Below, piece after piece: positions 28,718 through 56,794 of a stretch of 64,000 nucleotides of DNA. Positions within the stretch are counted from its first letter, which is position 1. Every line of letters starts with the position of its first letter. The notes under the pieces are model-generated. The model saw only the letters and a program-made list of their open reading frames with translations. It was not told where the DNA came from and searched no databases. The DNA comes from Actinomycetota bacterium (GTDB lineage: Bacteria > Actinomycetota > CADDZG01 > JAHWKV01): assembly GCA_019347715.1 (NCBI GenBank), contig JAHWKU010000010.1:10805-74804 (forward strand). The letters are read 5' to 3'. The translations under genes and the position numbers were made by a program.

Positions 28718-28724
28718 TAGTGGG

Positions 28725-29336
28725 TTAGCACGGCCCCTGGCCTAGTTGGAACTTGCCGTTCCATTTCTCGTAGATGAATGCCGTCGCCTCGGTGATCTTG
28801 GCGTCGAGATTCGAAGTCGTCACGTAGCGAGCCGTCTTGCCCGAAGCGTTGCTGAGAGGAACATCCTCCTCGGCCCCGTTGTCCCAAGTGACGTGGATCC
28901 TCGATGGAGCGGCCGACGGACCGCCGTCTATCTTGTTGATGATGAATTGCCACTGGGTGCTGTCGCAGTCGTATCCGACGAGCTTGGCCCGGATCGTCTT
29001 GCCTCCGATGACCTCGAAGTCGACCGCGTCGGTCGCAAGGACCTGTCCGTGTCGCAACAGACGAGCCTCGACCTTGTAACCGCCGCTCTTCGCGGTCTCG
29101 GGTGACCAGTCAAGGCTCCAATTCCCCGACTCGCCTTCTGCGGGAGCCGCTACCTCGGTCCAGCCGAAGACGCGTCCGTCCGGCCCCGTCAGCTGCACCT
29201 CGACCAGCCATGGCGCCGCCGTCAAGGTGACTTCCTGCTGGGTCGTGTCCGAGTTGCCGTCGCTGTCGATGACAGTGAGAGCAATGGTGAACGTCCTGTA
29301 GAACGCTCGGATAATCTCGAAGTTCCAACCGTCCAC
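28725..29336 (-). CDS. hypothetical protein (beta-rich, no recognised family)
   Basis: 203-aa ORF only. Composition AT-richer than flanking genes. No motif recognised. Confidence 0.35.
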   Translation of the reverse strand: MDGWNFEIIRAFYRTFTIALTVIDSDGNSDTTQQEVTLTAAPWLVEVQLTGPDGRVFGWTEVAAPAEGESGNWSLDWSPETAKSGGYKVEARLLRHGQVLATDAVDFEVIGGKTIRAKLVGYDCDSTQWQFIINKIDGGPSAAPSRIHVTWDNGAEEDVPLSNASGKTARYVTTSNLDAKITEATAFIYEKWNGKFQLGQGPC

Positions 29337-29889
29337 CTTTTAGAGTTATCGTCACCGGCTTCACGGCACTCGATAGTGCAGCCAACTGTTTTGGGAGGAT
29401 GGTGCAGACACCGAGGGGACCTTCACTTTCTTCATGGGCAGAAGAGTGGCCGCCATTGCCCTTTCTGCGTGGAACAGAAGAATCGGCATACGCTCTTCCG
29501 ATGCTTGAAACGAGGCAAGCATCAGAAGGAAAGAGACGACCGATGAATAAGACAAGCATCAATCCATCCCTTGATGGCCACAAGATTTCGGCTCGAATCG
29601 CGGTCAGCAATCAGATTTGCCAGCGCATTGGTGGTGTCCGAGCGAGAACTCGTAGCGATTTTCCGATTCCCAAGAGAGCTTGATTGATAGGTTGCATGAC
29701 AGACATGCAGGGCGTTCGCGGACAAGCCTGCATAATGGGATCCGCCAATAAGCGCCCCTCGCCGAAGACGATTCTCACGACATCAGGCGAGAATGTGAAC
29801 ATGCACCAAATTGCGGAAAGGAAATGAACGAAAGGATGAAGGGACGGCGATTCACAACATTCGGCTATATCTCTCAACTGCATCCATAA

Positions 29890-30606
29890 ATGGGACAGGC
29901 ACGATGTGTGTGCATCATTCCTGCCAGGGGAGGTTCCAAAGGAATCCGGCGAAAGAATCTCGTACCACTACTCGGCGTTCCACTGATTAGTCGGATCGTA
30001 AGAGTGGCTCAAGCCGCTCATTCAATTGAGCAAGTCGTAGTGTCGACAGATGACACCGAGATAGCCTCAGAAGCTGAGAGGTCAGGTGCCCATGTTTTAT
30101 TGCGTCCTTTAGAACTGAGTACTGACGAAGCGAGTTCTGAATCCGTGGTTCTGCACGCGCTCGACCAATTAGAGCGTGAAAATGAATACCTACCAGAATT
30201 GACTGCTTTCGTGCAATGTACGACTCCTCTAACTAAGTCTGAGGACATTGACGGAACCATAAAGATCCTTCTGGATGAGCAGGCGGACTCAGCTTTTACG
30301 GTAAGTCCCTTTTCTGGATTCGTTTGGCGCCAGTCCGAAATGGGCCGATGGATAGGTATGAACCATAGGGTGACAGTCCGTCAACGAAGACAGGACCGCG
30401 AGCCGGAATTCTTAGAAACAGGCGGAGTGTATGTATTCAAGACTAAGGGCTTCCGGCAGCATAAGCATCGCTTCTTCGGAACTATCGCGGCCTATGTCGT
30501 TGAACCCTCTCAAGCCTTAGAGATAGACGACTCCTGGCAACTTGTCCCAGCAGAGGCACTACTTAGATGGCGTGAGCGCGAAGAAGGGCAGCCTAGAGAC
30601 GGTTAA
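29890..30606 (+). CDS. acylneuraminate cytidylyltransferase family (CMP-nonulosonic acid synthetase, NeuA/PseF/LegF-like)
   Basis: 238 aa. CVCIIPARGGSKGIRRKNLVPLLGVPLI is the hallmark CTP_transf_3 N-terminus. Confidence 0.85.
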   Translation: MGQARCVCIIPARGGSKGIRRKNLVPLLGVPLISRIVRVAQAAHSIEQVVVSTDDTEIASEAERSGAHVLLRPLELSTDEASSESVVLHALDQLERENEYLPELTAFVQCTTPLTKSEDIDGTIKILLDEQADSAFTVSPFSGFVWRQSEMGRWIGMNHRVTVRQRRQDREPEFLETGGVYVFKTKGFRQHKHRFFGTIAAYVVEPSQALEIDDSWQLVPAEALLRWREREEGQPRDG

Positions 30607-30850
30607 CATGATCTCAAGTTGCAACGTGGAGTTGATAGGAGACTCTCGAATTGCCAACAAAACCGAAAACATGCAATGGATTTCGGCGGCCTCAGCCCGG
30701 CTGCGGGGAATTCAGCAGTCAATTAGGGGAGCTATGAGGCCTAACAGCTAAGCGCTGGGACGAAGCCTGATACTAGAGAATGGATCCGACACGTTTCAAG
30801 TGGGCCCCTCGAGGTCGCCACAAGATGACTAGAGACATCGCAAGAACCAT

Positions 30851-33097
30851 ATGATCATCGAGTCGAATATCTCCAAGTACATCGTCTTCGCCGAGGACGG
30901 TATTGCTCATGCCCTCCGCAAGATGACTCTCAACAGATCTCGCACCGTCTTTTGCGTAGGAGAACATGGAACTCTAGAAGGTGTCCTTACGGACGGAGAT
31001 TTCAGGCGATGGATCGTCGAGGAACCTGAAATTGATCTGGATCAACCCGTGTCTCGGATTGTGAATCGAGAGTTTCGCTCAGCATCAGTGCGAGCCTCCC
31101 CGGACGAGATAAGGGATCTCTTCGATGACGGGGTCACTCTCATACCTCTTACAGATGATCGTAATCGGATAGTCAGCATTGCTTTACGCGCGGCGCGAGC
31201 CATTGAGCTCGGAGACTTTACAATCGGTTCTGACGCTCCCGCATTTGTTATTGCGGAGATTGGAATCAATCACAACGGAAGCATCGAACTCGCTAGGCGA
31301 CTAGTTGACGAGGCGGTCCTCGCCGGAGCCGATTGTGTCAAATTCCAGATGCGTTATTTGCCATCCCTTTATCGCAATTCGGGAGACCCCAATGATCTTC
31401 GAGAGGATCTCGGATCGCAGTACATTCTCGATATTCTCAGCAGATTCTCTCTAAGCAATGATGAGCTTTTTGAAACTTTTGATTACGCGCGTGCCCAAGG
31501 CGTACTGCCGCTCTGCACGCCATGGGACGAACAGAGCGTCTTGGCTTTGGAAAACTATGGTATCGATGGGTACAAGATAGCGTCTGCCGATCTCACTAAT
31601 CACGATCTTCTTCGATTCGTTGCGGCTACCAGGAAACCCATGCTGGTCTCCACTGGAATGTCCACCGAGAACGAGATCAAACAAAGCGTCTCGTTGCTGA
31701 GGGATAATGGAGTAGCCTTCGTTTTACTTCATTGCAACTCCACATATCCCGCTCCTCTGAGAGATATTCATCTGAGCTTCCTGGACGGCCTTGCCGAAAT
31801 CGGGGACTGTCCAGTGGGGTACTCAGGCCATGAGCGAGGAATCGCTGTTCCGGTGGCCGCGGTGGCGCTGGGTGCCCGAGTGATCGAAAAGCATTTCACC
31901 CTCGATAAGACTATGGAAGGTAACGACCATAAGGTCAGTCTTTTGCCCCACGAATTTCGAACGATGGTTGACTCCATTCGGCAAGTCGAAGCCGCGCTAT
32001 CAAAGCAAGGCGAAAGACGGCCCAGTCAGGGCGAGTTCATTAACCGCGAGAATCTTGCCAAAAGTCTTATGGCTACCCGGCAGATAGAAGCAGGAGAGAC
32101 GATTACTGACGAAATGCTCATCTCAAGGAGTCCTGGCCGTGGACTTCAGCCGAACTATCGAAAAGCTCTAGTTGGACGCCCTGCACGTCGCTCGATTAAG
32201 CCGGGAGACTTTTTTTACGGCAGTGACCTCGACGATGTTGGAGTGAAGCCCAGAGCCTATAGATTCAGACGTCCTTGGGGACTGCCCGTTCGGTATCACG
32301 ACTTTCAAAATCTCTTGGGTCAGTCAAACATGGATTTTCTAGAATTCCACCTTAGCTACAAAGACATGGAGCAAGAACCTTCGCGCTTTTTCGATCGGCC
32401 TCTAGACCTGGGTATCACCGTCCACAGCCCTGACCTTTTCTCCGGAGACCACCTCATTGACCTGGCAGCGCGCGATGAAGGCTACCGTCTTCGTTCAGTT
32501 CGAGAACTCCAACGGGTCGTGAACACCACGCGTGAACTGTCCGCCTTTTTCTCCAGGTCGTCCAAGCCACTGATCATTGCGAGTTTGGGCGGATTTACGA
32601 AGGAACATCCCCTCGCCGAAGAGGAGCGTCCCGAGCTTTACGAAATGGTGGCTACAAGTCTGGATGCGCTGGACAAGGACGGGGTCGAAATAGTGCCCCA
32701 GACGGTTCCTCCGTTTCCTTGGTACCTAGGTGGGCAACTCCATTGCAACATCTTCGTTGACCCAGTCGATACGGCGACCTTTTGTGAAACGTACGGTTAC
32801 CGAATTTGCCTCGATCTCTCACACTCGAAACTTGCGACCAACTGCCGGAATGCCTCGTTCAAAGAGTTCGTGGAAGCAGTAGGTCCGTACGTAGCCCATA
32901 TCCATGTTTCCGATGCAGAAGGACTTGATGGCGAGGGCCTCCAGATCGGTATGGGCGAAATCGATTTTGCAGTGGTAGCTGAACAACTCGATGTCCTTGC
33001 TCCGAGTGCAGGGTTCATTCCGGAGGTTTGGCAAGGACATAAGAATGACGGCGAGGGATTCTGGGTTGCGCTCGATCGATTGGAGCGTTGGTTCTAG
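30851..33097 (+). CDS. tri-domain fusion: CBS pair + NeuB-family nonulosonic acid synthase (with SAF domain) + sugar-phosphate isomerase/epimerase-like TIM barrel
   Basis: 748 aa. Residues 1-115 form a CBS-pair-like region (IVFAEDGIAHALRKMTLNRSRTVFCVGEHGTLEGVLTDGDFRRWIV). Residues about 120-470 are NeuB-like (AFVIAEIGINHNGSIELARRLVDEAVLAGADCVKFQ...; SAF-like ITDEMLISRSPGRGLQP). Residues about 480-748 resemble xylose-isomerase-like TIM barrels (HSPDLFSGDHL..., AHIHVSDAEGLDGEG). Confidence 0.75.
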   Translation: MIIESNISKYIVFAEDGIAHALRKMTLNRSRTVFCVGEHGTLEGVLTDGDFRRWIVEEPEIDLDQPVSRIVNREFRSASVRASPDEIRDLFDDGVTLIPLTDDRNRIVSIALRAARAIELGDFTIGSDAPAFVIAEIGINHNGSIELARRLVDEAVLAGADCVKFQMRYLPSLYRNSGDPNDLREDLGSQYILDILSRFSLSNDELFETFDYARAQGVLPLCTPWDEQSVLALENYGIDGYKIASADLTNHDLLRFVAATRKPMLVSTGMSTENEIKQSVSLLRDNGVAFVLLHCNSTYPAPLRDIHLSFLDGLAEIGDCPVGYSGHERGIAVPVAAVALGARVIEKHFTLDKTMEGNDHKVSLLPHEFRTMVDSIRQVEAALSKQGERRPSQGEFINRENLAKSLMATRQIEAGETITDEMLISRSPGRGLQPNYRKALVGRPARRSIKPGDFFYGSDLDDVGVKPRAYRFRRPWGLPVRYHDFQNLLGQSNMDFLEFHLSYKDMEQEPSRFFDRPLDLGITVHSPDLFSGDHLIDLAARDEGYRLRSVRELQRVVNTTRELSAFFSRSSKPLIIASLGGFTKEHPLAEEERPELYEMVATSLDALDKDGVEIVPQTVPPFPWYLGGQLHCNIFVDPVDTATFCETYGYRICLDLSHSKLATNCRNASFKEFVEAVGPYVAHIHVSDAEGLDGEGLQIGMGEIDFAVVAEQLDVLAPSAGFIPEVWQGHKNDGEGFWVALDRLERWF

Positions 33098-33643: not shown

Positions 33644-34777
33644 CTAGATCCGTCTGTGGAACTCGATGAACTCGCCGTTTCCACTATCTGTAGTGAAGCC
33701 ATTCGTCTCAAAGCAACGTCGGGAAGGAAGATTATCGCGGTGAACCTCGGCCTCGAAAAGAGTCACCTGATGATCCTCTTTAAGTTCAGCGACTAGGGCA
33801 GAAATTATTTGTGTCCCATAACCCTTACTTCTCTCCACTTTTTCGACAGAGAATGAGATACGTCCGACCCCAGCTACTACATCGATCCTCACCTGACCTA
33901 TGGGCAAGTCACCAACCATGCCGATCCATATTCTGGTGGCTGGATTCTCCAGTGCTCGCCCGAACCACTCGTGGTGATCTGCAGGATTCACAGCCCGGCC
34001 GGATCGGCTGGTCCTTACGGTCGTGGGGTCATTCCTCATGGCTAGAAGAAATTCTTCGTCAGTAAGTATCGCTGGTCTGAGCCTCAAAGTGTCTTTGGGT
34101 TGATGCCTGATTCCTACTCGTTGGAGGATTTCCAACCAAGTCATTTCAGGGCTGCAACCGAGTCCTTCAACATATTTGCGGATGCGAGCTAAGTCTTCGG
34201 GTGTGTCGATAACCCATCGTTCCTTTCCCAAGAGGTGGCTCGTTCGGAGGTTACGAAGAGTGAAGACTTCAGGGTGACGATATATGTAGGGAGTAACATG
34301 CTCACGTTCCGCAGCCTCTTTAGCCTGGCGATCTGCTTCTCGGAGAGTTGACGCTCTCAGAACTTCAACGTCGAGACCCTTGGGATAAGTTCGAACAAGT
34401 GAGTTGGAGAGATAATCGGCTCCGGATGAGTCAAATCGCTCCACCGCCTCATTTATCAAGCCAGGATCGATGAAGGGACAGTCCCCTGTAACGCGCACTA
34501 CGGTTTCCGCAGGAAAAGCATCCAATACTTCGAGAAATCGATGAAGGACATCCATGCTGTCCCCTCTGACCGCGGGTACGCCGAGACGCTCTGCTTCTTG
34601 CTCGATGGGATCGTCTTCCTTCTCGGAGGAAGTAGCGACCATCACCTTAGCCTTCACTCGCTGAAGGCGCTTCAGGATGAAGGTGAGAACGGTTTCGTCG
34701 CCCAGAGGCATCAGGGTCTTGCCAGGCAGACGTCTGGAACCCATTCGGGCCTGGAGAATGCATATGGTTGCTTTCAA
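33644..34777 (-). CDS. fusion: SpsF/PseF-like cytidylyltransferase-family domain + GNAT N-acetyltransferase (PseH-like)
   Basis: 377 aa. N-terminus ICILQARMGSRRLPGKTLMPLGDETVL is CTP_transf_3/SpsF-like. The C-terminal roughly 150 aa form a GNAT fold (IWIGMVGDLPIGQVRIDVVAGVGRISFSVEKVERSKGYGTQIISALV). Last gene of the pse operon, ATGA-coupled to pseG. Confidence 0.75.
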   Translation of the reverse strand: MKATICILQARMGSRRLPGKTLMPLGDETVLTFILKRLQRVKAKVMVATSSEKEDDPIEQEAERLGVPAVRGDSMDVLHRFLEVLDAFPAETVVRVTGDCPFIDPGLINEAVERFDSSGADYLSNSLVRTYPKGLDVEVLRASTLREADRQAKEAAEREHVTPYIYRHPEVFTLRNLRTSHLLGKERWVIDTPEDLARIRKYVEGLGCSPEMTWLEILQRVGIRHQPKDTLRLRPAILTDEEFLLAMRNDPTTVRTSRSGRAVNPADHHEWFGRALENPATRIWIGMVGDLPIGQVRIDVVAGVGRISFSVEKVERSKGYGTQIISALVAELKEDHQVTLFEAEVHRDNLPSRRCFETNGFTTDSGNGEFIEFHRRI

Positions 34778-35631
34778 CCCGCTTGCGAGAGTAAAAAATC
34801 CGCCACCCTCCTAGGCCCCTTCCCATCAAAAAGACGAATCGCACGATCGCCCAATCGCCTACGAGCATCCTCGTCATCCAGGAGGGCTAGCGTATGATCG
34901 ATCGTCGCTGAAGGGGAGCTTCTGACAATGCATCCTAATCGTGCACAGTGGTCGACAGCTCGCGCCTGATTCTTATGTAGATCGAAAGCGACGGTAGGCC
35001 GGCCTAGAGTGAGCGCCTCGATCATGGTTACCCCTCCGGCGGTGATAACTAGGTCCGAGTGAGAGAGCCATTTCGCTAGACCTTGATCTGTATTGACGAT
35101 TTCCAATTTTGGGAGCAAGAAGCTTGATTCATCCCTGGTGGCTAAGAGCACCCTCAGTTCTGGGGCGCATTCGACTAACTGTCCCGCAATTGCCATACCC
35201 AAGCCGTTATCGGGACCGCCTCCGGTTGCCACCAGAACATTCTTTACATGACTTCCGATGGAGCGTCGCTTCATCAAGGCTAGTTGGGGATCGACAAGGC
35301 TAAACCCCGATCCCCGCAGGATTGAGGGGGATCCCCGAGAGACAATGGTGAGCCCTTCATCAGTTGGTGTCGGATCGACAACGACTTCCACATCAAGACT
35401 GCGTTCCAGATCATCGATCACGCAAGTAATCCTGCTAGCGGGATAGTCGCCGCGTGAGACTGGTCCATAGGTATCGAGCACGATAATCTCTGCCGCAGTT
35501 TGTGTTCCGACCTCGGCGAGATCTATCTCGACTTCCAATGAGGTGAACCCTGCACCCAAGGCCTTCATTCGACTCTGATGACCAAGTCCGGTGGTGGGTC
35601 CGGAGTCGAAGCGAAGGGAAACCCGAGTCAT
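34774..35631 (-). CDS. pseG: UDP-2,4-diacetamido-2,4,6-trideoxy-beta-L-altropyranose hydrolase-like (PseG family, GT28-like)
   Basis: 285 aa. RFDSGPTTGLGHQSRMKALGAGF is the PseG N-terminal Gly-loop. C-terminal GGVTMIEALTLGRPTVAF is typical of GT28 C-domains. ATGA overlaps on both sides. Confidence 0.7.
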   Translation of the reverse strand: MTRVSLRFDSGPTTGLGHQSRMKALGAGFTSLEVEIDLAEVGTQTAAEIIVLDTYGPVSRGDYPASRITCVIDDLERSLDVEVVVDPTPTDEGLTIVSRGSPSILRGSGFSLVDPQLALMKRRSIGSHVKNVLVATGGGPDNGLGMAIAGQLVECAPELRVLLATRDESSFLLPKLEIVNTDQGLAKWLSHSDLVITAGGVTMIEALTLGRPTVAFDLHKNQARAVDHCARLGCIVRSSPSATIDHTLALLDDEDARRRLGDRAIRLFDGKGPRRVADFLLSQAG

Positions 35632-48726: not shown

Positions 48727-48757
48727 TCTCTGATGCCTCAGGATCTGGCGGGGCTGC

Positions 48758-49954
48758 TTGATGGAGCTCCGAAGGCCAAAGAGCCTTAAAATTGTATTCG
48801 TCCTCAATATCCCAACTCCTTACCGCGATCCCCTGTTGGACTTGATCGGAAAGCTGGAAGGGATCGACCTGACCGTTTTGTATTGCAGTGAATCGGATCC
48901 CATGCGGACGTGGCAACTTAGGAAGGGGGGACATGAGGCGCTTTACTTGTCAGGAGCTAGCGTAGGAGGCAAACGTGGAGGGCTCAGATGGCGATTAAAT
49001 CCCAAAGTGGGTGCGACGCTATCGCGCTTGCGACCATCCCTAGTGGTTGTGGGGGGCTACATCAACCCAACAATGCAATTAGCGATGACGTGGTGCCATC
49101 GCGAGAACGTGCCATTTCTTCTGCTTAGTGAGTCTCATGACTGCAGGACACACACCTCCGAACTGAGGGAGAAGATCAAGGGTGTTGTGATTCGAAGGGC
49201 GGTAAAAAGGGCTCGCGGATTCTTGGCAGCGAGTCCGTTGGCCACAAACTATCTCATTCGATGGGGGGCCCCGCCGGATAGGGTTTTTTTGTTCCCTAAT
49301 GCTCCTGACCGAGAGGGTTTGCGGAGTAAGGCTCTGGAAGCAAGAAGTCAGGCGAAGAAATTTCGTTCACTGGGGTCGCCGCTCCTGCTATTCGTAGGTA
49401 GGTTGATTCCCATAAAGAATGTCCAGACGCTATTAAGGGCCTTTAGGACGGTTAAGCTAGCTCGCCCGAACGCTCGGTTGCTCATTGCTGGCAGCGGACC
49501 TGAGGAAAGGAAGTTGAAACGTCTAGGCCACGCGTCGCTTGATGGTGTTACCTTCTTGGGATTCGTTAGCCAACATGACTTGCCCGTTCTGTATTCAGCC
49601 GCCGATCTCTTGCTATTGCCGAGCCTCTATGAGACTTTTGGTGTCGTCGTGCTCGAATCTCTAGTCCTGGGCACCCCTGTGATCATCTCCGAAAATGTAG
49701 GCGCTAAGGACTTGATTAAAGAGGGTATTAATGGATTTGTCCTGCCTTCTCTGGATCCCGATATATGGGCTCAGACCATCATGGAGGCTACCGATCCACC
49801 GAACTTGCAGCATTTGAATCAGGGTTTGGAGATGATCGGTAACCCTTGGGACTATGACCTTTGCCTTGATAACTTCCGATCGGCCATTGAAAGCGCAATG
49901 CAAAATGGAACTTCCTCCCCGCAAAATGGCTCGGACACTTCGGCCTGGGAGTAG
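48758..49954 (+). CDS. GT4-family glycosyltransferase
   Basis: 398 aa. LLLPSLYETFGVVVLESLVLGTPVIISENVGAKDLIKEGINGFVL is the EX7E-type GT4 motif region. Confidence 0.85.
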   Translation: MMELRRPKSLKIVFVLNIPTPYRDPLLDLIGKLEGIDLTVLYCSESDPMRTWQLRKGGHEALYLSGASVGGKRGGLRWRLNPKVGATLSRLRPSLVVVGGYINPTMQLAMTWCHRENVPFLLLSESHDCRTHTSELREKIKGVVIRRAVKRARGFLAASPLATNYLIRWGAPPDRVFLFPNAPDREGLRSKALEARSQAKKFRSLGSPLLLFVGRLIPIKNVQTLLRAFRTVKLARPNARLLIAGSGPEERKLKRLGHASLDGVTFLGFVSQHDLPVLYSAADLLLLPSLYETFGVVVLESLVLGTPVIISENVGAKDLIKEGINGFVLPSLDPDIWAQTIMEATDPPNLQHLNQGLEMIGNPWDYDLCLDNFRSAIESAMQNGTSSPQNGSDTSAWE

Positions 49955-49959: not shown

Positions 49960-51330
49960 ATGGCGAAGACGATTCAAGGCGGACGAGCAATTCTTGTAGA
50001 GGGGACGCGTCCTTCAACAATTGTGTTCCTGACGGCATCTTCTGTTATTGCAGGATGGGTTGTTGTCATGCGGCCAGCGAGTGCCCTTATCATCCTTAGT
50101 GGGCTCGTTGTAATGTTCCTGGTCCTCTCGCAGCAGGTTCTCTTTTTGGTTCCCATGACAACCTTGGCCTTGGCCGTCGGTAGCTCCAGCCTTGTCTCCT
50201 CCGATTCATCAATCTCAAACTTCAAGTTCCTTATGGTGGCGGCTGTGGCTGTCAGTGGCTTGCTAGTTCTTGCCCGGACACGCCGGGTCGCCACTGGCTC
50301 TGGCATTATTGCTGCAGCGTTTGGGTTGGTGTTTTTTGCCTTTGTTTCGAGCCTTTACTCAACTAACCCTCGTCTGACGTTTGAACACTCGGTCGCACTC
50401 TCCCTTTTGTTTCTAAGCGCTCTCGTGGCAGTCCCCCTCCTCGTTTCAGATACGGCTAATTTGATACAGCTCGTCGGCGCGGTCGCCTTGACCGCCACGG
50501 CTTTGATCGTTGGGGGAATGGTGCTGGATGCGGCCGGCTTGATAGAGGGCTTTCAGGTTGGGAGATTCCAGGGACTCTTCCAAAATCCGAACATGATAGG
50601 TGCTTTCCTCGCTCCGGTACTTCCCGTTGTGGTTATTCTCGGCGTGGGGCAGAGGCAGAGACGTAAGGTTTTTATCGTGGCTGGGTTAGTCCTTTTCTTA
50701 GCTTTACTCCTGTCAGGCTCGCGCGGCGGACTTCTATCGTCGACTTTTGGAATGGCCGTGGGTTTCGCCGTCGCACGCAACGCGAAAAGGGCGCTGCTAT
50801 GGATTCTGATGGCTGCAATTGCGGCAGGAGCCGTTATCTCGTATCTGGACATTCGCATCCGTCCAGAGGGAGAGGGACTCTTTGAGGCTGGTACGGGGAG
50901 CAATCGCCTGATGGCTTGGGAAGACGGCATGCGGGTCATTTCCGAACGACCCTTGATTGGACACGGATTTGGAGTAACGCTTGAGTACTTTCCCGAGGTG
51001 AGGACCGAAAGTCTCTACCGAGGCAGTTCTAAATTTTTTCGCTTGCATAGCAGCTTCCTGGAAACCGCACTGGAACTGGGATGGCTCGGCGCGGGCTATC
51101 TAGTCCTGCTAGCCACGTCAGGGGTATGGAGGGGATGGAGGTTAGCCAGAGCAAGACCGCATGTGAAATGGCTGGTCGCGGCCCTTGCGGGAGGAATCGC
51201 CGGGGGCGCAATGGAGGGAGTATTCGAGGCGGGTCTTCTTGCGGCAGGGGGACTGCTCGCGTTTCACTTCTGGATCTTGGTTGGGGCGGTCCATTCGTTG
51301 AGCGGTGCTCGTCACAAATTGGTGCAGTGA
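49960..51330 (+). CDS. O-antigen ligase/polymerase-like (Wzy_C) membrane protein
   Basis: 456 aa, about 11 TM helices. FQNPNMIGAFL and LLLSGSRGGLLS periplasmic-loop motifs are typical of the O-antigen ligase family. Confidence 0.8.
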   Translation: MAKTIQGGRAILVEGTRPSTIVFLTASSVIAGWVVVMRPASALIILSGLVVMFLVLSQQVLFLVPMTTLALAVGSSSLVSSDSSISNFKFLMVAAVAVSGLLVLARTRRVATGSGIIAAAFGLVFFAFVSSLYSTNPRLTFEHSVALSLLFLSALVAVPLLVSDTANLIQLVGAVALTATALIVGGMVLDAAGLIEGFQVGRFQGLFQNPNMIGAFLAPVLPVVVILGVGQRQRRKVFIVAGLVLFLALLLSGSRGGLLSSTFGMAVGFAVARNAKRALLWILMAAIAAGAVISYLDIRIRPEGEGLFEAGTGSNRLMAWEDGMRVISERPLIGHGFGVTLEYFPEVRTESLYRGSSKFFRLHSSFLETALELGWLGAGYLVLLATSGVWRGWRLARARPHVKWLVAALAGGIAGGAMEGVFEAGLLAAGGLLAFHFWILVGAVHSLSGARHKLVQ

Positions 51331-51342: not shown

Positions 51343-52458
51343 TTGAGGGTTCTACTCACCGTACCTTCGACGCGAATCGACTTCGGAGGACCCTTTGGTA
51401 AGGCTCTCGCTCTGTCGTCCTCGCTCCAGGCATTGGGAGTAGAAGTGATGGTGATGGGAGGCGGACTCGGAGTCGACGGGACGGTAGTTGTGGGGCTGGG
51501 ATCCCTAACCAATTTTCATGGCACACCGATTCCTAGGCAATATCGGCCTTTGCTCCGTGAGATCGAGAGAGCCCAAGTGCTGCATGTGTTGGGCTTCAGG
51601 GACCCTGTGGGTACTCTAGCCATGATCAAGGCTTCCATGAGTTCGGTTCCTCGGATACTGGAACCTTGTGGAATGCATCGTCGAAGGTTGCGTAGTGAGA
51701 CACTCAAAACCATTTTTGATCGGAGTTTGGGGAATCATCTTGTCTCCCGAAGCGCCCGACTGATTGCCACGTCTTCCCTTGAGAGCAAGGAGCTCCAGGC
51801 CGATGGAGTTGAAGAGGAAATGATTACTGTTCGTCCGAACGGGATTGATGCTGATTCATCTACCCCAGTGCACCGAAAGGAAGAGTTTCGTGAGCAGATG
51901 GACATCTTCTCCAAGCTCCCGCTCGTTCTTTCCTTAGGGCGGATTACGCGCAAGAAATCCCTCGAACATTTGCTCCTGGCCCTCACAAGAGCCCCGGACC
52001 TGGGGGCCCTGATCGTCGGGCCGGACAGCCATGATGGGACGCTGGCAAGGCTACAGGAGATGCGTACGAACCTGGGGCTTGAAGATCGGGTTTTTATTCG
52101 CGCGAGAGGCGTTTGGGGAGACGAGAAAGCACTAGCCTTGGCCTCCTCCGACCTCTTTTGCCTCCCTTCAGAGACAGAGAACTTCGGGACGGCAGCAGCT
52201 GAAGCGGCAGGAGCGGGCCTTCCGGTTATTGTCTCAGACCGGTGTGGCGTCGCTGAATATTTACCGAGGGACTCGACGAGAGTAATTCGATTCGGGGACA
52301 TTGATGGTTTGGCAATTGCTTTAAGTGATATGAGTGGCCCACGAGCCAAGATGCTGGCTGAAGCTGGAAGCAAGCAGGTGCAAGAGGATTTGGATTGGGA
52401 TGTTCTCGCTAAAGCGCAGTTGGAGATTTATCAGGATGTCCTCCGAAAAACCTTCTGA
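51343..52458 (+). CDS. GT4-family glycosyltransferase
   Basis: 371 aa. CLPSETENFGTAAAEAAGAGLPVIVSDRCG. Confidence 0.8.
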   Translation: MRVLLTVPSTRIDFGGPFGKALALSSSLQALGVEVMVMGGGLGVDGTVVVGLGSLTNFHGTPIPRQYRPLLREIERAQVLHVLGFRDPVGTLAMIKASMSSVPRILEPCGMHRRRLRSETLKTIFDRSLGNHLVSRSARLIATSSLESKELQADGVEEEMITVRPNGIDADSSTPVHRKEEFREQMDIFSKLPLVLSLGRITRKKSLEHLLLALTRAPDLGALIVGPDSHDGTLARLQEMRTNLGLEDRVFIRARGVWGDEKALALASSDLFCLPSETENFGTAAAEAAGAGLPVIVSDRCGVAEYLPRDSTRVIRFGDIDGLAIALSDMSGPRAKMLAEAGSKQVQEDLDWDVLAKAQLEIYQDVLRKTF

Positions 52459-53644
52459 TGAGAGAAGAGGGAACCCTGAGGTTCTGATTGTCAATCAATA
52501 TTTTCCCCCGGACAGCTCAGCCACGGCTGGTGTTTTTGGGGAGATCGCTGGCTTTCTGTCGAGGGCAGGCTATTCGGTTACAACTTTGAGCGGGCATCCC
52601 TCTTACTCCCCGCAAGAAAAGATTCGTTGGAAGCCGTTTAGCAGAAGAGTTACGTCGCTCGGCATAGTTGAGCGTGTTGGGTCGTTTGCGAGTTCTCGCA
52701 ATTCCAATTTCGGGAGAGCAACTAACTATATTTCCTATCTTGTCCTGGCGAGCCTGCGGGGTGCGCTCCGGCGTCGAGCTGACGTCGTTATCGTTGGGAG
52801 TGATCCTCCGATGGCCATAGGAGCGGCTCTCATTGCTGCGAAGGGACGACCAGTCATTTACACAATCCAGGATCTTCATCCTGACCTGGGCCTAGCATCG
52901 GGCTGGATCCGCGATGGATTCTTGAGTCGAGCCTGGCAAAGTCTGCACACGATGGCTATGAGAAAGGCAACAACAGTGGTGTGCTTGGGTGAAGCGATGG
53001 CTCAACGAATATTGGATAAGGGAGTCGACCCGAGGAAAGTAATAGTGATTCCTCATGGTTCTCCGTCAAAGGTTGGCGCACCCGAGAGGGCGATAGTGGA
53101 GGAGTTGAGGCAGGGTGCCGGTTTCGTGGTTGCGCATGCCGGAAATATCGGATGGGGCGGAGCGTGGGAAACGATCATCGATGCCGCCAAGATGCTGAAT
53201 GGAGAGGCATCGTTCTTATTTATTGGTGAAGGAGTGAAAGCCGACCAGGTGGTTAACTCCGGCCAGCGAGTTCTTCCGTTCCGACCCCCATCGGAAATCG
53301 GATCCGTGATGCATGCCGGCGATCTCCAGCTAGTCACTATCCGTCCAGGTGCCGAAGGCCTGGTAGTTCCCAGCAAGATGTATTCGATCCTGGCTCATGG
53401 TCGCCCCATCCTTGCCGTGGCACCTCCCACCAGCGAGGTAGCGCTGCTGGCTCAGAAAGGTGTGGGTATCGTCGCGGATCCATTTGATCCCCATGACATC
53501 GTGGACAAGATACGGTGGGCCAAGGCCCATCCGGAGAAGCTTGCAGAGATGGGCAAAAGAGCCAGAATTTTGGCATCTGAGGTTAAAAGAGACGATCAGT
53601 TGAAGAAACTGGTCTCGTTGGTAGAGGGGTTCGCCGCCAATTGA
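52435..53644 (+). CDS. GT4-family glycosyltransferase (WcaI-like)
   Basis: Track ORF 52334..53644. ATG at 52435 gives MSSEKPSDERRGNPEVLIVNQYFPPDSSATAGV, typical of WcaI-like GT4, with a 24-nt overlap on the upstream gene. Confidence 0.8.
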
Positions 53645-55377
53645 TCTTAGGTATCAACGCTTACCACGGTGATTCCTCGGCTGCTCTTTTCTCCGATGGC
53701 CGATGTATCGCCGCGGTTGAACAAGAGCGCTTTTCTCGGCTGAAGCACCATGCTGGTTTCCCGGATCTTGCGATCCAAGAGTGCCTCGAGATGGTTGTTG
53801 CCGGGCCTGAAGCTATAGAGCACATCGCCATAGGGCGCGATCCGTCAGCTCATTTTCACAACAAAGTCCTATTTGGACTGAAGCGAGTCTCCTCCATGAA
53901 GGAGATGCTCGGGGCCCGTCTGGCCAATGCTGCCAAAGTTCTGGATAACAAGGATTCAGTGGCGACAGCTCTAGGAGTCAATGCCAAAGATCTTCAGGCC
54001 AAGAACCATCGTGTGGAACATCACCGCGCTCACCTAGCGAGTGCTCTTTTTTGCTCACCCTTCGAAGATGCAGTTTGCCTCTCGGTTGACGGGATGGGGG
54101 ATTTTGCCTCGACCATGTGGGGCAGGGGAGCTGGTTCCAAGATCGATGTCGACGGCCAAGTGCTGTATCCGCACTCTCTCGGCATTTTCTATACGGCTCT
54201 CACGCAGTTCGTTGGGCTTCCGAGCTATGGCGATGAATACAAGTTGATGGGACTCTCGGCGTACGGGGAGCCGCGCTTCCTGACCCAGATGCGAGATGTC
54301 GTGCGGTTGGGAGAAGGCCTGAATGTTGAGCTGAACCTCGATTACTTCGTCCACGACAAAGAGGGCGTCGAGATGACTTGGGAACAGGGGACTCCCGAAA
54401 TCGCTCCTCTTTGGTCAAAGAAGATGGAAGAGGTTTTCGGTGCAGCACGTGCTTACCGGGGGGACGTTACGGAGAGGGATAAGGATCTGGCCGCAAGCGT
54501 TCAGGCACGACTGGAGGAGATCGTTCTCGAGATGCTGCGGCGTCTATATAAAAGGACGGGGACCCCTCGCCTCGTGATGGCCGGAGGAGTGGCGCTCAAT
54601 TGTGTGGTGAATGGCATGATTCGAAGCGAGACGCCGTTCGAGGAAGTGTGGATTCAGCCCGCCGCTAACGATGCCGGGATCTCCATCGGAGCAGGTCTTT
54701 GGGTTCAGCACCAGATCTTGGGCCAAGAGCGTTCGTGGGTGATGGATCACGCCTTGCTCGGCCCCGAGTTCTCGGACACCGACTACGAGATGGCTCTGGA
54801 AGGGCTTGATGTTCCCTATCTCTCGCTTGATGACGAGAAGCTGGTGGATGAGGCAGCCAAGCGGATCGCCGACGGAAAGATCGTCGGGTGGTTCCAGGGG
54901 AAGATGGAATTTGGTCCCCGTGCTCTTGGGAATCGCTCGATCGTTTGCGATCCCAGACGTCACGACATGAAGGACATCTTGAACTCCCGCATCAAATATC
55001 GGGAGCCGTTCCGGCCGTTCGCGCCTTCGATTCTCCAGGAGAAGACCGGCGAGTGGTTTACCCAAGACTACCCATCGCCGTTCATGCTGATGGCTTACGA
55101 GGTGAGACCCGAGAAGAAAGACGAGATCCCTGCCGTCACCCACGAGGATGGAACTGGGCGACTTCAAACCGTCGATTCGTCTACCAACCCGAGATACCAT
55201 GGGTTGATCTCCGCCTTCGAGAGACTTACGGGAGTGCCCGTGGTTCTGAACACTTCGTTCAACGAGAACGAACCGATCTGCTGTACGCCCGCGGAAGCCA
55301 TCGACTGCTTTCAGAGGACGCAGATGGATACTCTTGTGCTCGGCAACTTCATCGTCGATAAGAGGATCTCCCGATGA
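53641..55377 (+). CDS. carbamoyltransferase (NodU/CmcH family)
   Basis: 578 aa. MILGINAYHGDSSAALFSDGRCIAAVEQERFSRLKHHAGFP and HHRAHLASA (YrdC/Kae1-like fold) are characteristic. Confidence 0.9.
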   Translation: MILGINAYHGDSSAALFSDGRCIAAVEQERFSRLKHHAGFPDLAIQECLEMVVAGPEAIEHIAIGRDPSAHFHNKVLFGLKRVSSMKEMLGARLANAAKVLDNKDSVATALGVNAKDLQAKNHRVEHHRAHLASALFCSPFEDAVCLSVDGMGDFASTMWGRGAGSKIDVDGQVLYPHSLGIFYTALTQFVGLPSYGDEYKLMGLSAYGEPRFLTQMRDVVRLGEGLNVELNLDYFVHDKEGVEMTWEQGTPEIAPLWSKKMEEVFGAARAYRGDVTERDKDLAASVQARLEEIVLEMLRRLYKRTGTPRLVMAGGVALNCVVNGMIRSETPFEEVWIQPAANDAGISIGAGLWVQHQILGQERSWVMDHALLGPEFSDTDYEMALEGLDVPYLSLDDEKLVDEAAKRIADGKIVGWFQGKMEFGPRALGNRSIVCDPRRHDMKDILNSRIKYREPFRPFAPSILQEKTGEWFTQDYPSPFMLMAYEVRPEKKDEIPAVTHEDGTGRLQTVDSSTNPRYHGLISAFERLTGVPVVLNTSFNENEPICCTPAEAIDCFQRTQMDTLVLGNFIVDKRISR

Positions 55378-55416
55378 GCTTTCCCACTGCCTGGCAGTCT
55401 GGCTTCCAGATGGTTC

Positions 55417-56547
55417 ATGCAGTCTGGCAAAAAGGGCCACCGGCGCTGGACCTGGTGGAGATGCAACATCCTCAATATGAATGCCGCGGGCCTAGAGTTG
55501 CGGCTTTCCTCCCAACAGCTCTGTGGCTGGCGCAGTAAAGATTCGGTAGTGATGCAATCATGGGTTGAGGACACCCTGGCATGCCCCCGTGATGGCGTAT
55601 CTCTAAGTCTGAAGGGAGATGTGCTCAAATGCCCCGAGGGTCATGAATACCCCCTCATCCTGGGCGTTCCGGTGATGCTGATCGATGAGGCGCCTCCTAC
55701 GCATGGGGCCATTAGGGAAACCTTGAATCAGGTGACGGGCGAGCTTGGCTATCCCGAGATTGGGGACCCCCAAGAAACACGGCAGTTTGTACAAGACATG
55801 TTGGGCGCAACCTGTGGACACATGTATCAGCATGTCAAGTCCTTACAGGACTATCCGATCCCTCGGTTCCCCCTTTCTCCTGAGTTCGCGGGAGCCACGC
55901 TCATAGACATCGGCTCAAATTGGGGAAGGTGGTCGTTCTCAGCCGCTCGGAAGGGATTCAGAGTTGTGGCGGTAGATCCTTCCTTAAGGAGTGCCCTGGC
56001 GGGCAAGGAGATAGCGCGCCAGATAGGTCTTCCGGTTTCGTTTATCGTTGGAGATGCCCGATTCTTGCCCTTCAAATCTCGAACTTTTGATGTTGCATTC
56101 TCATATTCCGTTCTTCAGCACTTCAGTAAGAGTGATGCTCAGCTGGCGATAGACGAGGCCTCTAGAGTTCTGAGGCCGGACCGGACCATCTTGGTTCAGA
56201 TGGCGAACGGACGGGGACTCAGGCAACTCTTTAACCGGTTGAGACAGCAGGTAAAGGCGGATACCAATCCCTTCCGAGTTCGGTACTGGACCATCCGCGA
56301 GCTAAACGCTGTATTCGAACAAATAGGGAAGACTTCGATTTCAGCAGATGGTTACCTATCATTGAATGCTCAAATCTCGGATATTGACATCTTGCCTAGA
56401 AGATATGGATTCCTAATCCGGTTTTCTGAAGCTCTGAAAGGAGTTGCCGCGAGGAGGCCGATCCTAACGGAATTCGCCGATAGCCTATGGGTAATGTCCA
56501 GGAAGAGAGCGCAGGATGGCACCCCGGGCAGCCCGCCTGAGACCTAA
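55417..56547 (+). CDS. class I SAM-dependent methyltransferase with N-terminal Trm112-like zinc-ribbon domain
   Basis: Start uncertain (an alternative Met is near 55547). LACPRDGVSLSLKGDVLKCPEGHEYPLILGVPVML is Trm112/DUF343-like. The MT fold is TLIDIGSNWGRWSFSAARKGFRVVAVDPS. Confidence 0.75.
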   Translation: MQSGKKGHRRWTWWRCNILNMNAAGLELRLSSQQLCGWRSKDSVVMQSWVEDTLACPRDGVSLSLKGDVLKCPEGHEYPLILGVPVMLIDEAPPTHGAIRETLNQVTGELGYPEIGDPQETRQFVQDMLGATCGHMYQHVKSLQDYPIPRFPLSPEFAGATLIDIGSNWGRWSFSAARKGFRVVAVDPSLRSALAGKEIARQIGLPVSFIVGDARFLPFKSRTFDVAFSYSVLQHFSKSDAQLAIDEASRVLRPDRTILVQMANGRGLRQLFNRLRQQVKADTNPFRVRYWTIRELNAVFEQIGKTSISADGYLSLNAQISDIDILPRRYGFLIRFSEALKGVAARRPILTEFADSLWVMSRKRAQDGTPGSPPET

Positions 56548-56589
56548 ATTAACTGGGAGTCTGGATGAGGTCGCTGCGGTAGGAGCCTC

Positions 56590-56794
56590 GGGGGGGTGTC
56601 ATCGGCTCTTGCCGGGATACCATGGGTTCTTTCACATTCGAGAGACTAACGGGAGTGCCCGTGGTACTGAACACTTCGTTCAATGAGAATGAGCCCATCT
56701 GGTGCACGCCTGCGGAAGCCATCGACTGCTTTCAAAGGACGCAGATGGATTCTTTGGTGCTCGGGAACTTCATCGTCGACAAGACGAACTCCTG
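56590..56794 (+). pseudogene. 3' fragment of a carbamoyltransferase gene (duplicate of 55175-55377 region)
   Basis: About 87 percent nucleotide identity to the 3' end of 53641..55377 by my manual alignment. The frame is intact over the last 55 codons (FERLTGVPVVLNTSFNENEPIWCTPAEAIDCFQRTQMDSLVLGNFIVDKTNS*). Upstream of that it is degenerate and shifted. It ends in the same TGATGAGCTTT stop/start junction. Confidence 0.7.

Follow-up and report, generated by a model that had tools for sequence, protein, structure and literature searches.

Which surface polymer is encoded by the AT-richer glycan locus of an uncultured Actinomycetota metagenome-assembled genome (protein MBW3589267.1, locus tag KY429_07600), and which of its proteins would attach pseudaminic acid (Pse)? 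A preliminary description of the 64-kb stretch of DNA analyzed here (the window) took the locus, with its Pse pathway, as a candidate for specifying a teichulosonic acid-type cell wall polymer. The genes and the neighborhoods of two TagF-shaped proteins, A2 and A3, bear out a Pse-bearing surface glycan locus, while a strict teichulosonic acid is only one of several rival products. In general terms, the locus probably directs a WecA-primed acidic glycan that contains Pse, perhaps with a second nonulosonic acid, and is exported by Wzm and a Wzt with a carbohydrate-binding module. Judged from sequence, Pse may lie either in the main chain, as in a teichulosonic acid, or at its end or side as a cap or decoration.

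The AT-richer segment extends from ~29.35 to 56.64 kb, a cassette of ~27 kb in which GC falls from ~0.62 outside to ~0.53 inside (Table 1). In 1-kb windows, GC is 0.60–0.65 from 10 to 29 kb, 0.51–0.575 from 29 to 57 kb, and back at 0.61 from 57 to 59 kb. GC3 per gene is 0.561 ± 0.042 in the island (n = 21) versus 0.700 ± 0.075 in the core (n = 10; Mann–Whitney p = 5 × 10−4), with no difference between island and core genes in GC1 or GC2. The profile is not flat, and the drop in base composition described earlier is confirmed, as is its right end near 56.6 kb. The left end, previously placed at 28.72 kb, shifts to ~29.30–29.35 kb, to the right of a gene (28725–29336) with a core-like GC3 of 0.79.

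Table 1. Features of the cassette and its borders (positions in the window)
Feature	Position	Strand	Remarks
Final family-A repeat copy	28691–28717	−	Ends core-type DNA at left; outside cassette
Left compositional boundary, AT-richer non-coding	29340–29889		GC 0.62–0.65 to 0.51
Second cytidylyltransferase, CTP_transf_3	29890–30606	+	PseF-like, 134 bits, below cutoff of 205
Second NeuB, 748-aa CBS–NeuB–SAF–xylose-isomerase-like TIM fusion	30851–33097	+	Second nonulosonic acid synthase
Cytidylyltransferase–GNAT fusion	33644–34777	−	Putative PseF/PseH roles, from context; TTGA overlap with PseG-like gene
PseG-like UDP-sugar hydrolase	34774–35631	−	Weak: TIGR03590, 48 bits (cutoff 153)
NeuB-family synthase, PseI position	35628–36674	−	PseI model 323 bits (cutoff 340); NeuB model 372 (cutoff 399)
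PseC aminotransferase	36671–37747	−	417.4 bits, just below cutoff of 423.5; GTG start overlaps PseB stop
PseB, inverting UDP-GlcNAc 4,6-dehydratase	37744–38718	−	467 bits, above cutoff of 407.75
TylF-family O-methyltransferase	38832–39551	+	Opens long plus-strand operon
A2, 485 aa, TIGR04396 "surface carbohydrate biosynthesis protein"	39780–41237	+	TagF/TarL-like GT-B fold
Wzm ABC-2 permease	41241–42137	+	ABC2_membrane, 48.1 bits
Wzt ATPase with C-terminal Wzt_C carbohydrate-binding domain	42134–43462	+	ABC_tran, 81.9 bits; Wzt_C, 42.9 bits (cutoff 30.4)
A3, 500 aa, large family at fringe of PF04464	43676–45178	+	GT-B fold
GT2 glycosyltransferase	45178–46212	+	Pfam/NCBIfam
Three GT4	46346–49954 (46346–47584, 47581–48726, 48758–49954)	+	Pfam/NCBIfam
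Wzy_C membrane protein, O-antigen ligase/polymerase-like	49960–51330	+	Pfam/NCBIfam
Two GT4	51343–53644 (51343–52458; 52334–53644, WcaI-like)	+	Pfam/NCBIfam
NodU/CmcH-type carbamoyltransferase	53641–55377	+	Pfam/NCBIfam
Second methyltransferase, class I SAM	55417–56547	+	Between two direct-repeat copies
Scar: ~53-codon 3′ remnant of second carbamoyltransferase allele	56637–56803	+	89% nt identity to 55216–55382
WecA/MraY-family polyprenyl-phosphate sugar-phosphate transferase fused to DUF4012	56795–59695	+	Core-like composition
Second DUF4012 protein	59692–61689	+	Operon-mate of WecA-like gene

The borders carry traces of two kinds. The 27-nt family-A repeat (GGAGGCGCGACTCACAGAATCTTCCAG) occurs in nine copies (none expected by chance), all within 10,597–28,717; as reported before, none of the nine lies inside the island, and the repeat is likewise absent from 1–10.5 kb and 56.6–64 kb. 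At the other end, where the cassette lies directly upstream of the conserved WecA-like initiating transferase gene, the recombination scar proposed at 56.6 kb proves to be what is left of a second carbamoyltransferase allele, joined to the beginning of the WecA-like gene. It is one copy of a 167-nt direct repeat (55216–55382 and 56637–56803) covering the 3′-terminal part of the carbamoyltransferase gene, where the stop codon overlaps an ATG; the second copy stands just before the true WecA-like start at 56795 and keeps an ATGA junction with that gene. The two copies differ by 12 synonymous and 2 non-synonymous changes. A remnant of a different allele at this position implies at least one replacement event, in which recombination would have put the present cassette in the place of an older one whose last gene encoded a carbamoyltransferase.

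The segment is likely to be an exchangeable surface-glycan cassette of foreign composition. Low GC is not in itself proof of foreign origin, as surface-polysaccharide loci are commonly AT-richer than their genomes, and the cassette may instead have long been resident as one allele at a polymorphic locus. In keeping with residency, the other glycan locus at 1–10 kb is also GC-reduced (0.54–0.59 in 1-kb windows), no integrase, transposase, or other mobility domain occurs among the island ORFs scanned, no tRNA target was found at the borders, and a search for an empty site (the same locus without the cassette) found none; neither an Rfam element nor, apart from the carbamoyltransferase remnant, flanking attachment repeats were found. 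However, the island GC3 of 0.56 is also below the 0.69 of the other glycan locus (p = 4.5 × 10−5), and the closest homologs of key genes reside in other phyla: at most 44% identity for A2, in Acidobacteriota, Chloroflexota, and Gemmatimonadota, and 58–62% for the CBS–NeuB–SAF–TIM fusion, in cyanobacteria. Together with the remnant of a different allele, these observations make a long-resident allele unlikely.

Pfam and NCBIfam support the gene set of the Pse operon, with a weak match for the PseG-like protein. Equivalog assignment is defined by the NCBIfam curated cutoff, which within this operon PseB alone passes; the PseH model gives 38 bits, far below its cutoff of 93, and the operon cytidylyltransferase has no match to the NCBIfam PseF model. 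All junctions are 4-nt overlaps (GTGA, ATGA, ATGA, and TTGA), the last departing from the ATGA or GTGA earlier given for every junction. Order and content are the same as in the Pse operons of two loci with A2 homologs (L003 and L004). With PseB identified at the equivalog level and the others by family membership, order, and synteny, the PseB–PseC–(GNAT)–PseG–PseI–cytidylyltransferase route would lead to CMP-pseudaminic acid. The second NeuA-like gene, which has the lowest GC3 of the island (0.47), and the second NeuB-like synthase were likewise recovered by both databases, in agreement with the preliminary description, and would yield another CMP-nonulosonic acid. CMP-nonulosonic acids are the only CMP/CDP-type donors encoded in the island: there is no TagD or IspD-type gene, and all cytidylyltransferases are of the CTP_transf_3 (NeuA/KdsB) type.

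A2 and A3 had been described as paralogous GT-B transferases with motifs resembling those of CDP-glycerol glycerophosphotransferases and of the capsule enzymes KpsS/KpsC. Both have a TagF-like GT-B fold, with TagF, TarL, and Bcs3 as best or near-best fold matches; at the sequence level, neither matches a solved structure. The resemblance to KpsS/KpsC does not hold, because A2 and A3 lack PF05159 (Capsule_synth), which has no match among the window proteins scanned, and the KpsC/WbbB (GT99/107/118) fold. The two are only remote homologs (BLASTP, 26% identity over 120 aa; hhalign probability 98.6%, E = 1 × 10−15). HMM searches also contradict membership in the TagF Pfam family: A2 is a clear member of TIGR04396 (245.8 bits, cutoff 125; residues 6–414 on profile positions 2–396 of 427), to which A3 (23.6 bits) does not belong, and has no match to PF04464 (gathering score 22.1 bits) even at E ≤ 10. 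A3 falls short of the PF04464 gathering score, matching with 11.5 bits (E = 0.14) across its C-terminal 66 residues only; in its family, which lies at the fringe of PF04464, 20 of 43 members do match (best E = 1.5 × 10−7).

Invariant motifs are DTEGG, TGxPRFDF, and RPHPFE in A2 and SFDN, TGTPQFDFH, and RxHP in A3. D80-T-E82-G83 and R-P-H233-P show little or no variation across 35 A2 sequences; in the A3 family, SFDN takes the place of D/E-D/E-G, and the RxHP histidine is H in 33 of 43 members and Y in 10. Compared by sequence, the A2 motifs recall the D/E-D/E-G and HP motifs of sialyltransferases, and RxHP of A3 recalls HP; these sites may correspond in position. The A3 family is large (2,377 representatives as 50%-identity clusters at E ≤ 1 × 10−30), and relatives of the locus occur in at least five phyla. 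A2 and A3 homologs in other phyla adjoin nonulosonic acid pathways, and often each other. TylF-type methyltransferase and carbamoyltransferase genes accompany A2 and Wzm/Wzt in L004 and L008, and a Capsule_synth protein is encoded beside the A2 homolog of L003. On the basis of fold, motifs, and conserved neighborhoods, A2 and A3 are candidate CMP-nonulosonic acid transferases, and both families probably attach nine-carbon acids. We know of no CAZy glycosyltransferase family for the superfamily that the two may form.

Pfam and NCBIfam agree with the earlier description on Wzm/Wzt with its C-terminal carbohydrate-binding domain, five GT4 genes, one GT2 gene, and one O-antigen ligase-like (Wzy_C) gene. 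The island also encodes proteins absent from that description, namely the TylF-type methyltransferase, the NodU-type carbamoyltransferase, and the second methyltransferase; these and A2 itself are candidate chain terminators. Synthesis would start on polyprenyl phosphate with the WecA-like/DUF4012 fusion, which is probably the initiating enzyme, and the GT4 and GT2 enzymes would extend the glycan in the cytoplasm. A2 and A3 would transfer nonulosonic acid from CMP donors; we favor a division in which A2 would act at the non-reducing end, coupled to export, and A3 within the chain or at a branch, although the assignment of A2 specifically as the cap-adding enzyme is tentative. The glycan would receive O-methyl groups from the TylF-type enzyme and O-carbamoyl groups from the NodU-type enzyme, probably at the chain end. 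The finished lipid-linked chain would be exported by Wzm/Wzt, whose carbohydrate-binding domain would read the terminal structure. Attachment to the acceptor may fall to the Wzy_C protein or to an LCP enzyme whose gene lies elsewhere; the window contains no LCP ligase gene.

The nearest characterized relatives are Tannerella forsythia Tanf_01245 and TFUB4_00887 of the BFO_1060 family (NF046086), to which A2 (116.4 bits) is homologous and A3 (40.7 bits) weakly so, both under the 200-bit cutoff that defines the family. Like A2 and A3, the Tannerella transferases are of the TagB/GT-B type and encoded beside Pse/Leg pathways; they use a CMP-activated donor, as A2 and A3 would, and their D/E-D/E-G-like and HP motifs may have counterparts in A2 and, for HP, in A3. 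In their Gram-negative host they add a single terminal residue to protein O-glycans, whereas A2 and A3 belong to an actinobacterial ABC-transporter locus. The Tannerella assignments rest on knock-outs; the only assayed pseudaminyltransferase among those found is Acinetobacter baumannii KpsS1 (GT118; PMC12887879), a member of an unrelated KpsS/KpsC-like family that uses CMP-Pse, as A2 and A3 would. TagF, TarL, and TagB (PF04464) and the TagF-like capsule polymerases Bcs3 and Cps3D differ from A2 and A3, which fail PF04464, lie in a locus that makes no CDP-polyol donor, and are predicted to catalyze glycosyl rather than phosphodiester transfer.

At the locus level, the Streptomyces coelicolor SCO4873–SCO4882 cluster (Kdn–Gal polymer), compared by its description, also includes NeuB- and NeuA-type genes and makes an actinobacterial, phosphate-free acidic wall polymer with a nonulosonic acid, sometimes O-methylated. 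Its acid is Kdn, not Pse, and the window shows no sign of a PhoP or phosphate link. The Legionella pneumophila serogroup 1 locus is similarly WecA-primed and Wzm/Wzt-dependent, with a 5,7-diamino nonulosonic acid polymer (polylegionaminic acid) and methyltransferase-based modification, but its product is a Gram-negative LPS O-antigen. Chain-terminator systems such as that of Raoultella WbbB (GT99; β-Kdo cap) share with the island an ABC exporter ATPase with a carbohydrate-binding domain, and in such systems an ulosonic acid at the non-reducing end stops elongation and licenses export. By analogy, a Pse cap may act likewise here. Neither A2 nor A3 gave a match to the WbbB/KpsC/KpsS1 folds.

A strict teichulosonic acid would have a Pse main chain, alone or alternating with a second nonulosonic acid or a hexose, made by A2 and A3 as TagB/TagF-like primase and processive polymerase or as alternating linkage-specific modules, exported through Wzm/Wzt, and anchored to peptidoglycan by an LCP enzyme. 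Teichulosonic acids are made by actinomycetes (Streptomyces, Kribbella), and L. pneumophila makes its homopolymer with WecA and Wzm/Wzt. The best fold matches include TagF, TarL, and Bcs3, all polymerases; two homologous transferases share the locus and are often adjacent elsewhere; tandem A3–A3, triple-A3, and GT4–A3 proteins resemble dual-module polymerases; and the Wzt ATPase domain is closest to TagH, along with galactan-export Wzt. However, six further glycosyltransferases imply a complex heteroglycan, an A3 fusion to a Wzx-type flippase elsewhere implies repeat-unit rather than processive chemistry, the T. forsythia relatives attach a single terminal residue, Wzt_C with the methyl- and carbamoyltransferases points to a capped chain, and the window has no LCP gene. 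A strict teichulosonic acid is rather unlikely. Alternatively, a lipid-linked glycan with terminal Pse would leave via Wzm/Wzt and be placed on protein, for instance an S-layer, by the Wzy_C protein as O-oligosaccharyltransferase. A Wzy polymerase is unexpected in an ABC-transporter-dependent locus, this protein scores best in NCBIfam with a "putative O-glycosylation ligase" model, at a sub-cutoff 45 bits, the closest characterized transferase family adds terminal Pse/Leg to S-layer O-glycans, and the S-layer glycans of Gram-positive bacteria typically bear methyl caps. With a generic Wzy_C assignment, no S-layer or target protein gene evident in the window, and DUF4012 and WecA fusions that suggest a wall polysaccharide locus, protein glycosylation is quite unlikely.

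Two further readings concern the chemistry of A2 and A3. That A3, possibly with A2, is a divergent NeuC/LegG-type hydrolyzing 2-epimerase feeding a ManNAc-type substrate to the second NeuB is very improbable: Epimerase_2 matches none of 43 A3-family members versus 20 for PF04464, hhalign to genuine Epimerase_2 proteins gives probabilities of 42% (A3) and 1.7% (A2), and true Epimerase_2 genes stand beside the A2 gene in L008 and L009, the latter also with an A3-like gene. The TagF/TarL-like fold and the marginal similarity of the A3 family to PF04464 would suit genuine polyol-phosphate transferases for glycerol- or ribitol-phosphate teichoic acid, but the island has no CDP-glycerol or CDP-ribitol synthesis genes (TagD, TarI/TarJ), nonulosonic acid pathways are consistently associated across phyla, and both proteins fail PF04464, which leaves this the most improbable reading of all. 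The preferred assignment as CMP-nonulosonic acid transferases can be extended to a bolder proposal, which we regard as speculative and more doubtful than not by a wide measure: A2 and A3 would form a large TagF-fold-derived superfamily working as a pair, in which A3 modules would build nonulosonic acid-containing chains and A2 would add the terminal residue that the Wzt carbohydrate-binding domain reads once methylated or carbamoylated. If this is true, the product in this actinobacterium would be the first Pse-type teichulosonic acid with a defined genetic basis.

For the organism, this is an ordinary, well-preserved switch of a surface-antigen cassette by recombination. The locus is a further example of an already known type. 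Enzymes known to transfer pseudaminic or legionaminic acid onto glycans are few, and the island and its relatives point to two large TagF-fold families as missing, candidate transferases. They also suggest a link between nonulosonic acid addition, methyl/carbamoyl modification, and export gated by the Wzt carbohydrate-binding module. In actinobacteria, the locus would give a genetic handle on Pse-type wall polymers that are so far known only chemically.

The AT-richer segment of the window is a real and well-delimited feature whose theme is ordinary: it is a variable surface-glycan cassette (hereafter, the island) with a pseudaminic acid (Pse) pathway. GC content in 1-kb windows is 0.60–0.65 at 10–29 kb, 0.51–0.575 at 29–57 kb, and 0.61 at 57–59 kb. 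GC3 is 0.561 ± 0.042 in the 21 island genes as opposed to 0.700 ± 0.075 in 10 core genes (Mann–Whitney p = 5e-4) and 0.689 in the other glycan locus at 1–12 kb (p = 4.5e-5 against the island). Because GC1 and GC2 do not differ, the shift is one of codon usage. The compositional drop claimed in the preliminary description is therefore borne out by both profiles, neither of which is flat. Of the two borders proposed there, the right-hand scar at ~56.6 kb stands, while the left border moves from 28.7 kb to ~29.30–29.35 kb, where a finer GC profile breaks; the gene lying between these positions is core-like (GC3 0.79) and outside the island.

The repeat termed family A is a 27-nt element, GGAGGCGCGACTCACAGAATCTTCCAG. 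All nine copies, which occur in both orientations, fall between 10,597 and 28,717; chance alone would be expected to yield none. Its reported absence from the island is confirmed, and it is likewise missing from 1–10.5 kb and from the 7 kb beyond the right border, being limited to the high-GC core segment. The copies are intergenic, at times forming an inverted pair that flanks a GC-rich hairpin directly 3′ of stop codons (FbiC, PBP), and the element looks like a REP- or terminator-associated one. The window holds no tRNA or Rfam element, and the island ORFs scanned with Pfam contain no integrase or transposase domain; a classical mobile island is therefore ruled out.

Gene content was assigned by Pfam and NCBIfam. 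The pse operon lies on the minus strand and comprises (i) PseB (467 bits, above the equivalog cutoff), (ii) PseC (417 bits against a cutoff of 423.5), (iii) a NeuB-family synthase in the PseI position (323 bits against 340), (iv) a weakly matching PseG-like protein, and (v) a cytidylyltransferase–GNAT fusion. Its junctions are 4-nt overlaps, of which the first three (GTGA, ATGA, ATGA) are ATGA or GTGA as reported for all of them and the last (TTGA) is not. Convergent with this operon are a second cytidylyltransferase and a 748-aa fusion of CBS, NeuB, SAF, and xylose-isomerase-like TIM domains. One long plus-strand operon diverges from pseB and encodes in order a TylF-type O-methyltransferase, A2 and A3 (the two TagF-fold proteins) separated by Wzm and a Wzt with a Wzt_C domain, a GT2, three GT4s, a Wzy_C protein, two further GT4s, a NodU-type carbamoyltransferase, a methyltransferase, the scar, a WecA/MraY-family transferase fused to DUF4012, and a second DUF4012 protein. 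The gene list drawn up previously was correct but lacked the two methyltransferases and the carbamoyltransferase.

Positions of the island, its key genes, and other features in the window and in comparison loci
Feature	Sequence	Position	Strand	Remarks
Core-like gene	window	28725-29336		left of island
Island	window	~29.35-56.64 kb		low GC
NeuB fusion	window	30851-33097		748 aa
A2	window	39780-41237	+	485 aa; MBW3589267.1, KY429_07600
A3	window	43676-45178	+	500 aa
Repeat copy 1	window	55216-55382		3′ end of carbamoyltransferase gene
Methyltransferase gene	window	55417-56547	+	between repeat copies
Repeat copy 2	window	56637-56803		~53-codon remnant
WecA-like gene, true start	window	56795	+	MSFAPEW
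Family-A repeat, example sites	window	18596-18687; 21006-21056		
Second glycan locus	window	1-12513		
WecA-like gene of second locus	window	5074-6078		
AbiEi/DUF559 gene	window	14142-15077		
Coiled-coil protein gene	window	22743-25211		822 aa
Periodic 33-nt repeats	window	23574-23747		within coiled-coil gene
33-nt tandem repeat	window	25973-26037		
NeuB-fusion comparison sites	L090; L008; L009	10001-12250; 20862-21503; 15947-17491		
Capsule_synth gene	L003	8410-9984		KpsS/KpsC-type

Outside the island, the second glycan locus encodes GT2, GT4, a methyltransferase, four epimerase/dehydratase genes, a GDP-mannose 4,6-dehydratase, a WecA-like protein, and a 737-aa Wzy_C + TPR protein; its GC is mildly reduced (0.54–0.59), with GC3 (0.63–0.78) nearer core values. 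The core segment also contains an apolipoprotein-like coiled-coil protein whose DNA carries 33-nt periodic repeats, another 33-nt tandem repeat, and, between F420 biosynthesis genes, a gene whose product combines AbiEi antitoxin-like and DUF559/REase-like domains and which may be a defence or toxin–antitoxin remnant.

The scar is a 167-nt direct repeat (89% identity) flanking the methyltransferase gene. Its second copy is a remnant with an intact frame, in which both the stop codon and the ATGA junction with the WecA-like start survive. In ~50 shared codons, the remnant and the carbamoyltransferase gene differ at ~12 synonymous and only 2 non-synonymous positions, so the remnant diverged before it ceased to be functional. 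This pattern rules out a recent local duplication followed by decay and marks the remnant as that of another carbamoyltransferase allele, in keeping with the recombination scar proposed for this site. In the simplest history, an older cassette, likewise ending in a carbamoyltransferase gene beside wecA, would have been replaced by the present one.

Acquisition or exchange of the island by recombination is favoured by codon usage, by closest homologs that lie in other phyla, and by the remnant of a second allele. Along its entire length, the NeuB fusion shares 58–62% identity with proteins that are cyanobacterial where named; the Rippkaea orientalis copy is solitary, with no glycan locus nearby. 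In other phyla, an analogous, non-homologous fusion of NeuB with a cupin/lyxose-isomerase-like domain occurs beside a cytidylyltransferase; a synthase–isomerase fusion might make its own aldose substrate (perhaps mannose for Kdn). The collections searched contain no close relative for scoring island presence or absence, the nearest being helicase relatives at 48–60% identity and WecA-DUF4012 relatives at ~30%. The latter occur at two loci in genome contigs (29–32% identity, with an unrelated protease, integrase, and ClC channel upstream), which are too distant to count as empty sites. None of the 80 metagenome loci with relatives of the left-flank helicase has island genes or WecA-DUF4012 downstream. 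Many soil-metagenome loci (among L024–L088) carry PseC-like and PseB-like genes (31–41% identity) upstream of a UvrD-like helicase, with FbiC further upstream; the window differs in that PBP and other genes intervene.

A2 and A3 lack significant Pfam matches (A3 reaches E=0.14 against PF04464) and neither touches Capsule_synth. A2 belongs clearly to TIGR04396 (“surface carbohydrate biosynthesis protein”), with 245.8 bits against a cutoff of 125. On NF046086, the model for the BFO_1060 family, A2 reaches 116 bits and A3 reaches 41; the A3 score on TIGR04396 is 24. The two proteins are marginally similar by BLASTP (26% over 120 aa), while comparison of the two family alignments (35 sequences for A2, 43 for A3) gives a match of 98.6% probability (E=1e-15, 286 columns). 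PF04464 is matched individually by 20 of the 43 A3-family members. The A2-family motifs DTEGG, TGxPRFDF, and RPHPFE are all essentially invariant; the A3 family has SFDN, an invariant TGTPQFDFH, and RxHP, with H in 33/43 and Y in 10/43.

AlphaFold models are confident (pLDDT 88.6 for A2, 89.6 for A3), and that of A3 matches 2-epimerases (21–24), TarL (21.0), TagF (19.8), WaaA (18.8), and the polysialyltransferase SiaD (16.3). Sequence and profile searches of A2, A3, and a PF04464-carrying A3 member against solved structures gave no meaningful match. Of the TagF/KpsS likeness suggested earlier, the TagF-like GT-B fold stands, whereas PF04464 membership does not hold, and resemblance to KpsS/KpsC is ruled out by the lack of both a PF05159 match and a fold match. 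Identity as 2-epimerases was also rejected.

Both families are large. Homologs other than A2's own sequence are ≤44% identical to it, those named belonging to Acidobacteriota, Chloroflexota, Gemmatimonadota, and Myxococcota. An exhaustive HMM search for A3 yields 2,377 representatives of 50%-identity clusters at E<=1e-30. Long A3-family proteins (P0318, P0355, P0374, P0380, P0351, P0311, P0396, and P0321) include tandem doubles, one triple, and fusions to a Wzx-type flippase, GT4, or PhyH dioxygenase. These architectures suggest polymerase-like roles in some lineages and repeat-unit roles in others; no A2–A3 fusion occurs among the top 150 A3 representatives.

Two modules recur across phyla, and the window has both. 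The first joins a nonulosonic acid (NulO) pathway to A2, Wzm, Wzt_C, a carbamoyltransferase, and a TylF-type methyltransferase. L004 has PseB-C-F-G-H-I, A2, Wzm, Wzt_C, and TylF, near a carbamoyltransferase, GT2, and second cytidylyltransferase, and L008 has NeuA-NeuB-NeuC-type genes with A2, a TylF-like methyltransferase, Wzm, Wzt_C, and a carbamoyltransferase. Wzm, Wzt, and the carbamoyltransferase of these loci are 47–55% identical to those of the window, with A2 lower (36–41%). The second module, A3 with a GT4-Wzy_C-GT4 trio, accompanies legionaminic acid (Leg)-type genes in L005 and L007, and an A2-like gene adjoins the A3 gene in L006 and L007. L009 combines a full Leg-type pathway, A2, a second CTP_transf_3 + NeuB-cupin module, and an A3-like protein; L003 combines Wzt_C, a Capsule_synth protein, A2, a Pse operon, and A3 (E=3.6e-95 against the A3 profile). 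The Capsule_synth gene of L003 is of the KpsS/KpsC type, to which the one pseudaminyltransferase known to have been assayed also belongs. It lies directly upstream of the TIGR04396 homolog and the Pse operon, so a single locus can house both kinds of transferase.

The island cytidylyltransferases are NeuA/KdsB-type, without TagD or TarI, and CMP-nonulosonic acids are its only CMP/CDP-type donors. Relatives in Tannerella forsythia (BFO_1060, Tanf_01245, and TFUB4_00887) were identified as Pse/Leg-derivative transferases by knock-out and complementation and likened to TagB/GT-B enzymes, with both D/E-D/E-G and HP motifs (PMC5420450). Given these donors, the fold, the motifs, the Tannerella kinship, and the conserved neighbourhoods, A2 and A3 are best read as nonulosonic-acid transferases.

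In the pathway we propose, the WecA-like enzyme would prime synthesis on polyprenyl phosphate, and cytoplasmic chain extension would follow through the five GT4s and one GT2. Two enzymes would contribute Pse and perhaps another NulO, A3 within the chain or on a branch and A2 at the non-reducing terminus, and the glycan would be O-methylated and O-carbamoylated. A precedent is Nod factor synthesis, in which NodS and NodU modify the non-reducing end before NodIJ export. The Wzt carbohydrate-binding domain (residues ~275–400) would read the terminus for export via Wzm/Wzt, and attachment to the acceptor may fall to the Wzy_C protein or to an LCP enzyme whose gene lies elsewhere. There are two further precedents: the polylegionaminic acid of L. 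pneumophila serogroup 1 is made through WecA and Wzm/Wzt (PMC3766260), and WbbB adds a terminal Kdo, which halts elongation and prepares the O-antigen to be exported (PMC12887879). The domain identities, homologies, folds, and gene neighbourhoods are observations, whereas the donor and acceptor specificities, step order, and anchoring are our inference; as a general scheme for a nonulosonic-acid glycan, the pathway is reasonably probable.

The preliminary description had proposed a teichulosonic-acid-type polymer. S. coelicolor makes such a polymer from Kdn and Gal, sometimes methylated, under PhoP control (cluster SCO4873-4882); Kribbella also makes teichulosonic acids, and work of Tul'skaya and colleagues from 2011 is said to have described Pse-type ones there. 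A strict teichulosonic acid would accord with the polymerase-like fold of A2 and A3, their pairing and the tandem modules of their relatives, and the TagH-like ATPase. However, six ordinary glycosyltransferases stand beside them, the nearest characterised relatives add a single residue, Wzt_C and the modifying enzymes suggest capping, and the window has no LCP gene, all of which is adverse or neutral to that polymer; so is B. subtilis SpsB, which is TagB-like with the same motifs and dispensable for Leg transfer (PMC7439481). We regard a strict teichulosonic acid as unlikely, and a protein O-glycan as the product of the cassette as decidedly improbable.

What the analysis adds is the placement of two enigmatic enzymes in large, uncharacterised NulO-associated TagF-fold families, together with a recurrent module that ties these families to a Wzt-CBM exporter.
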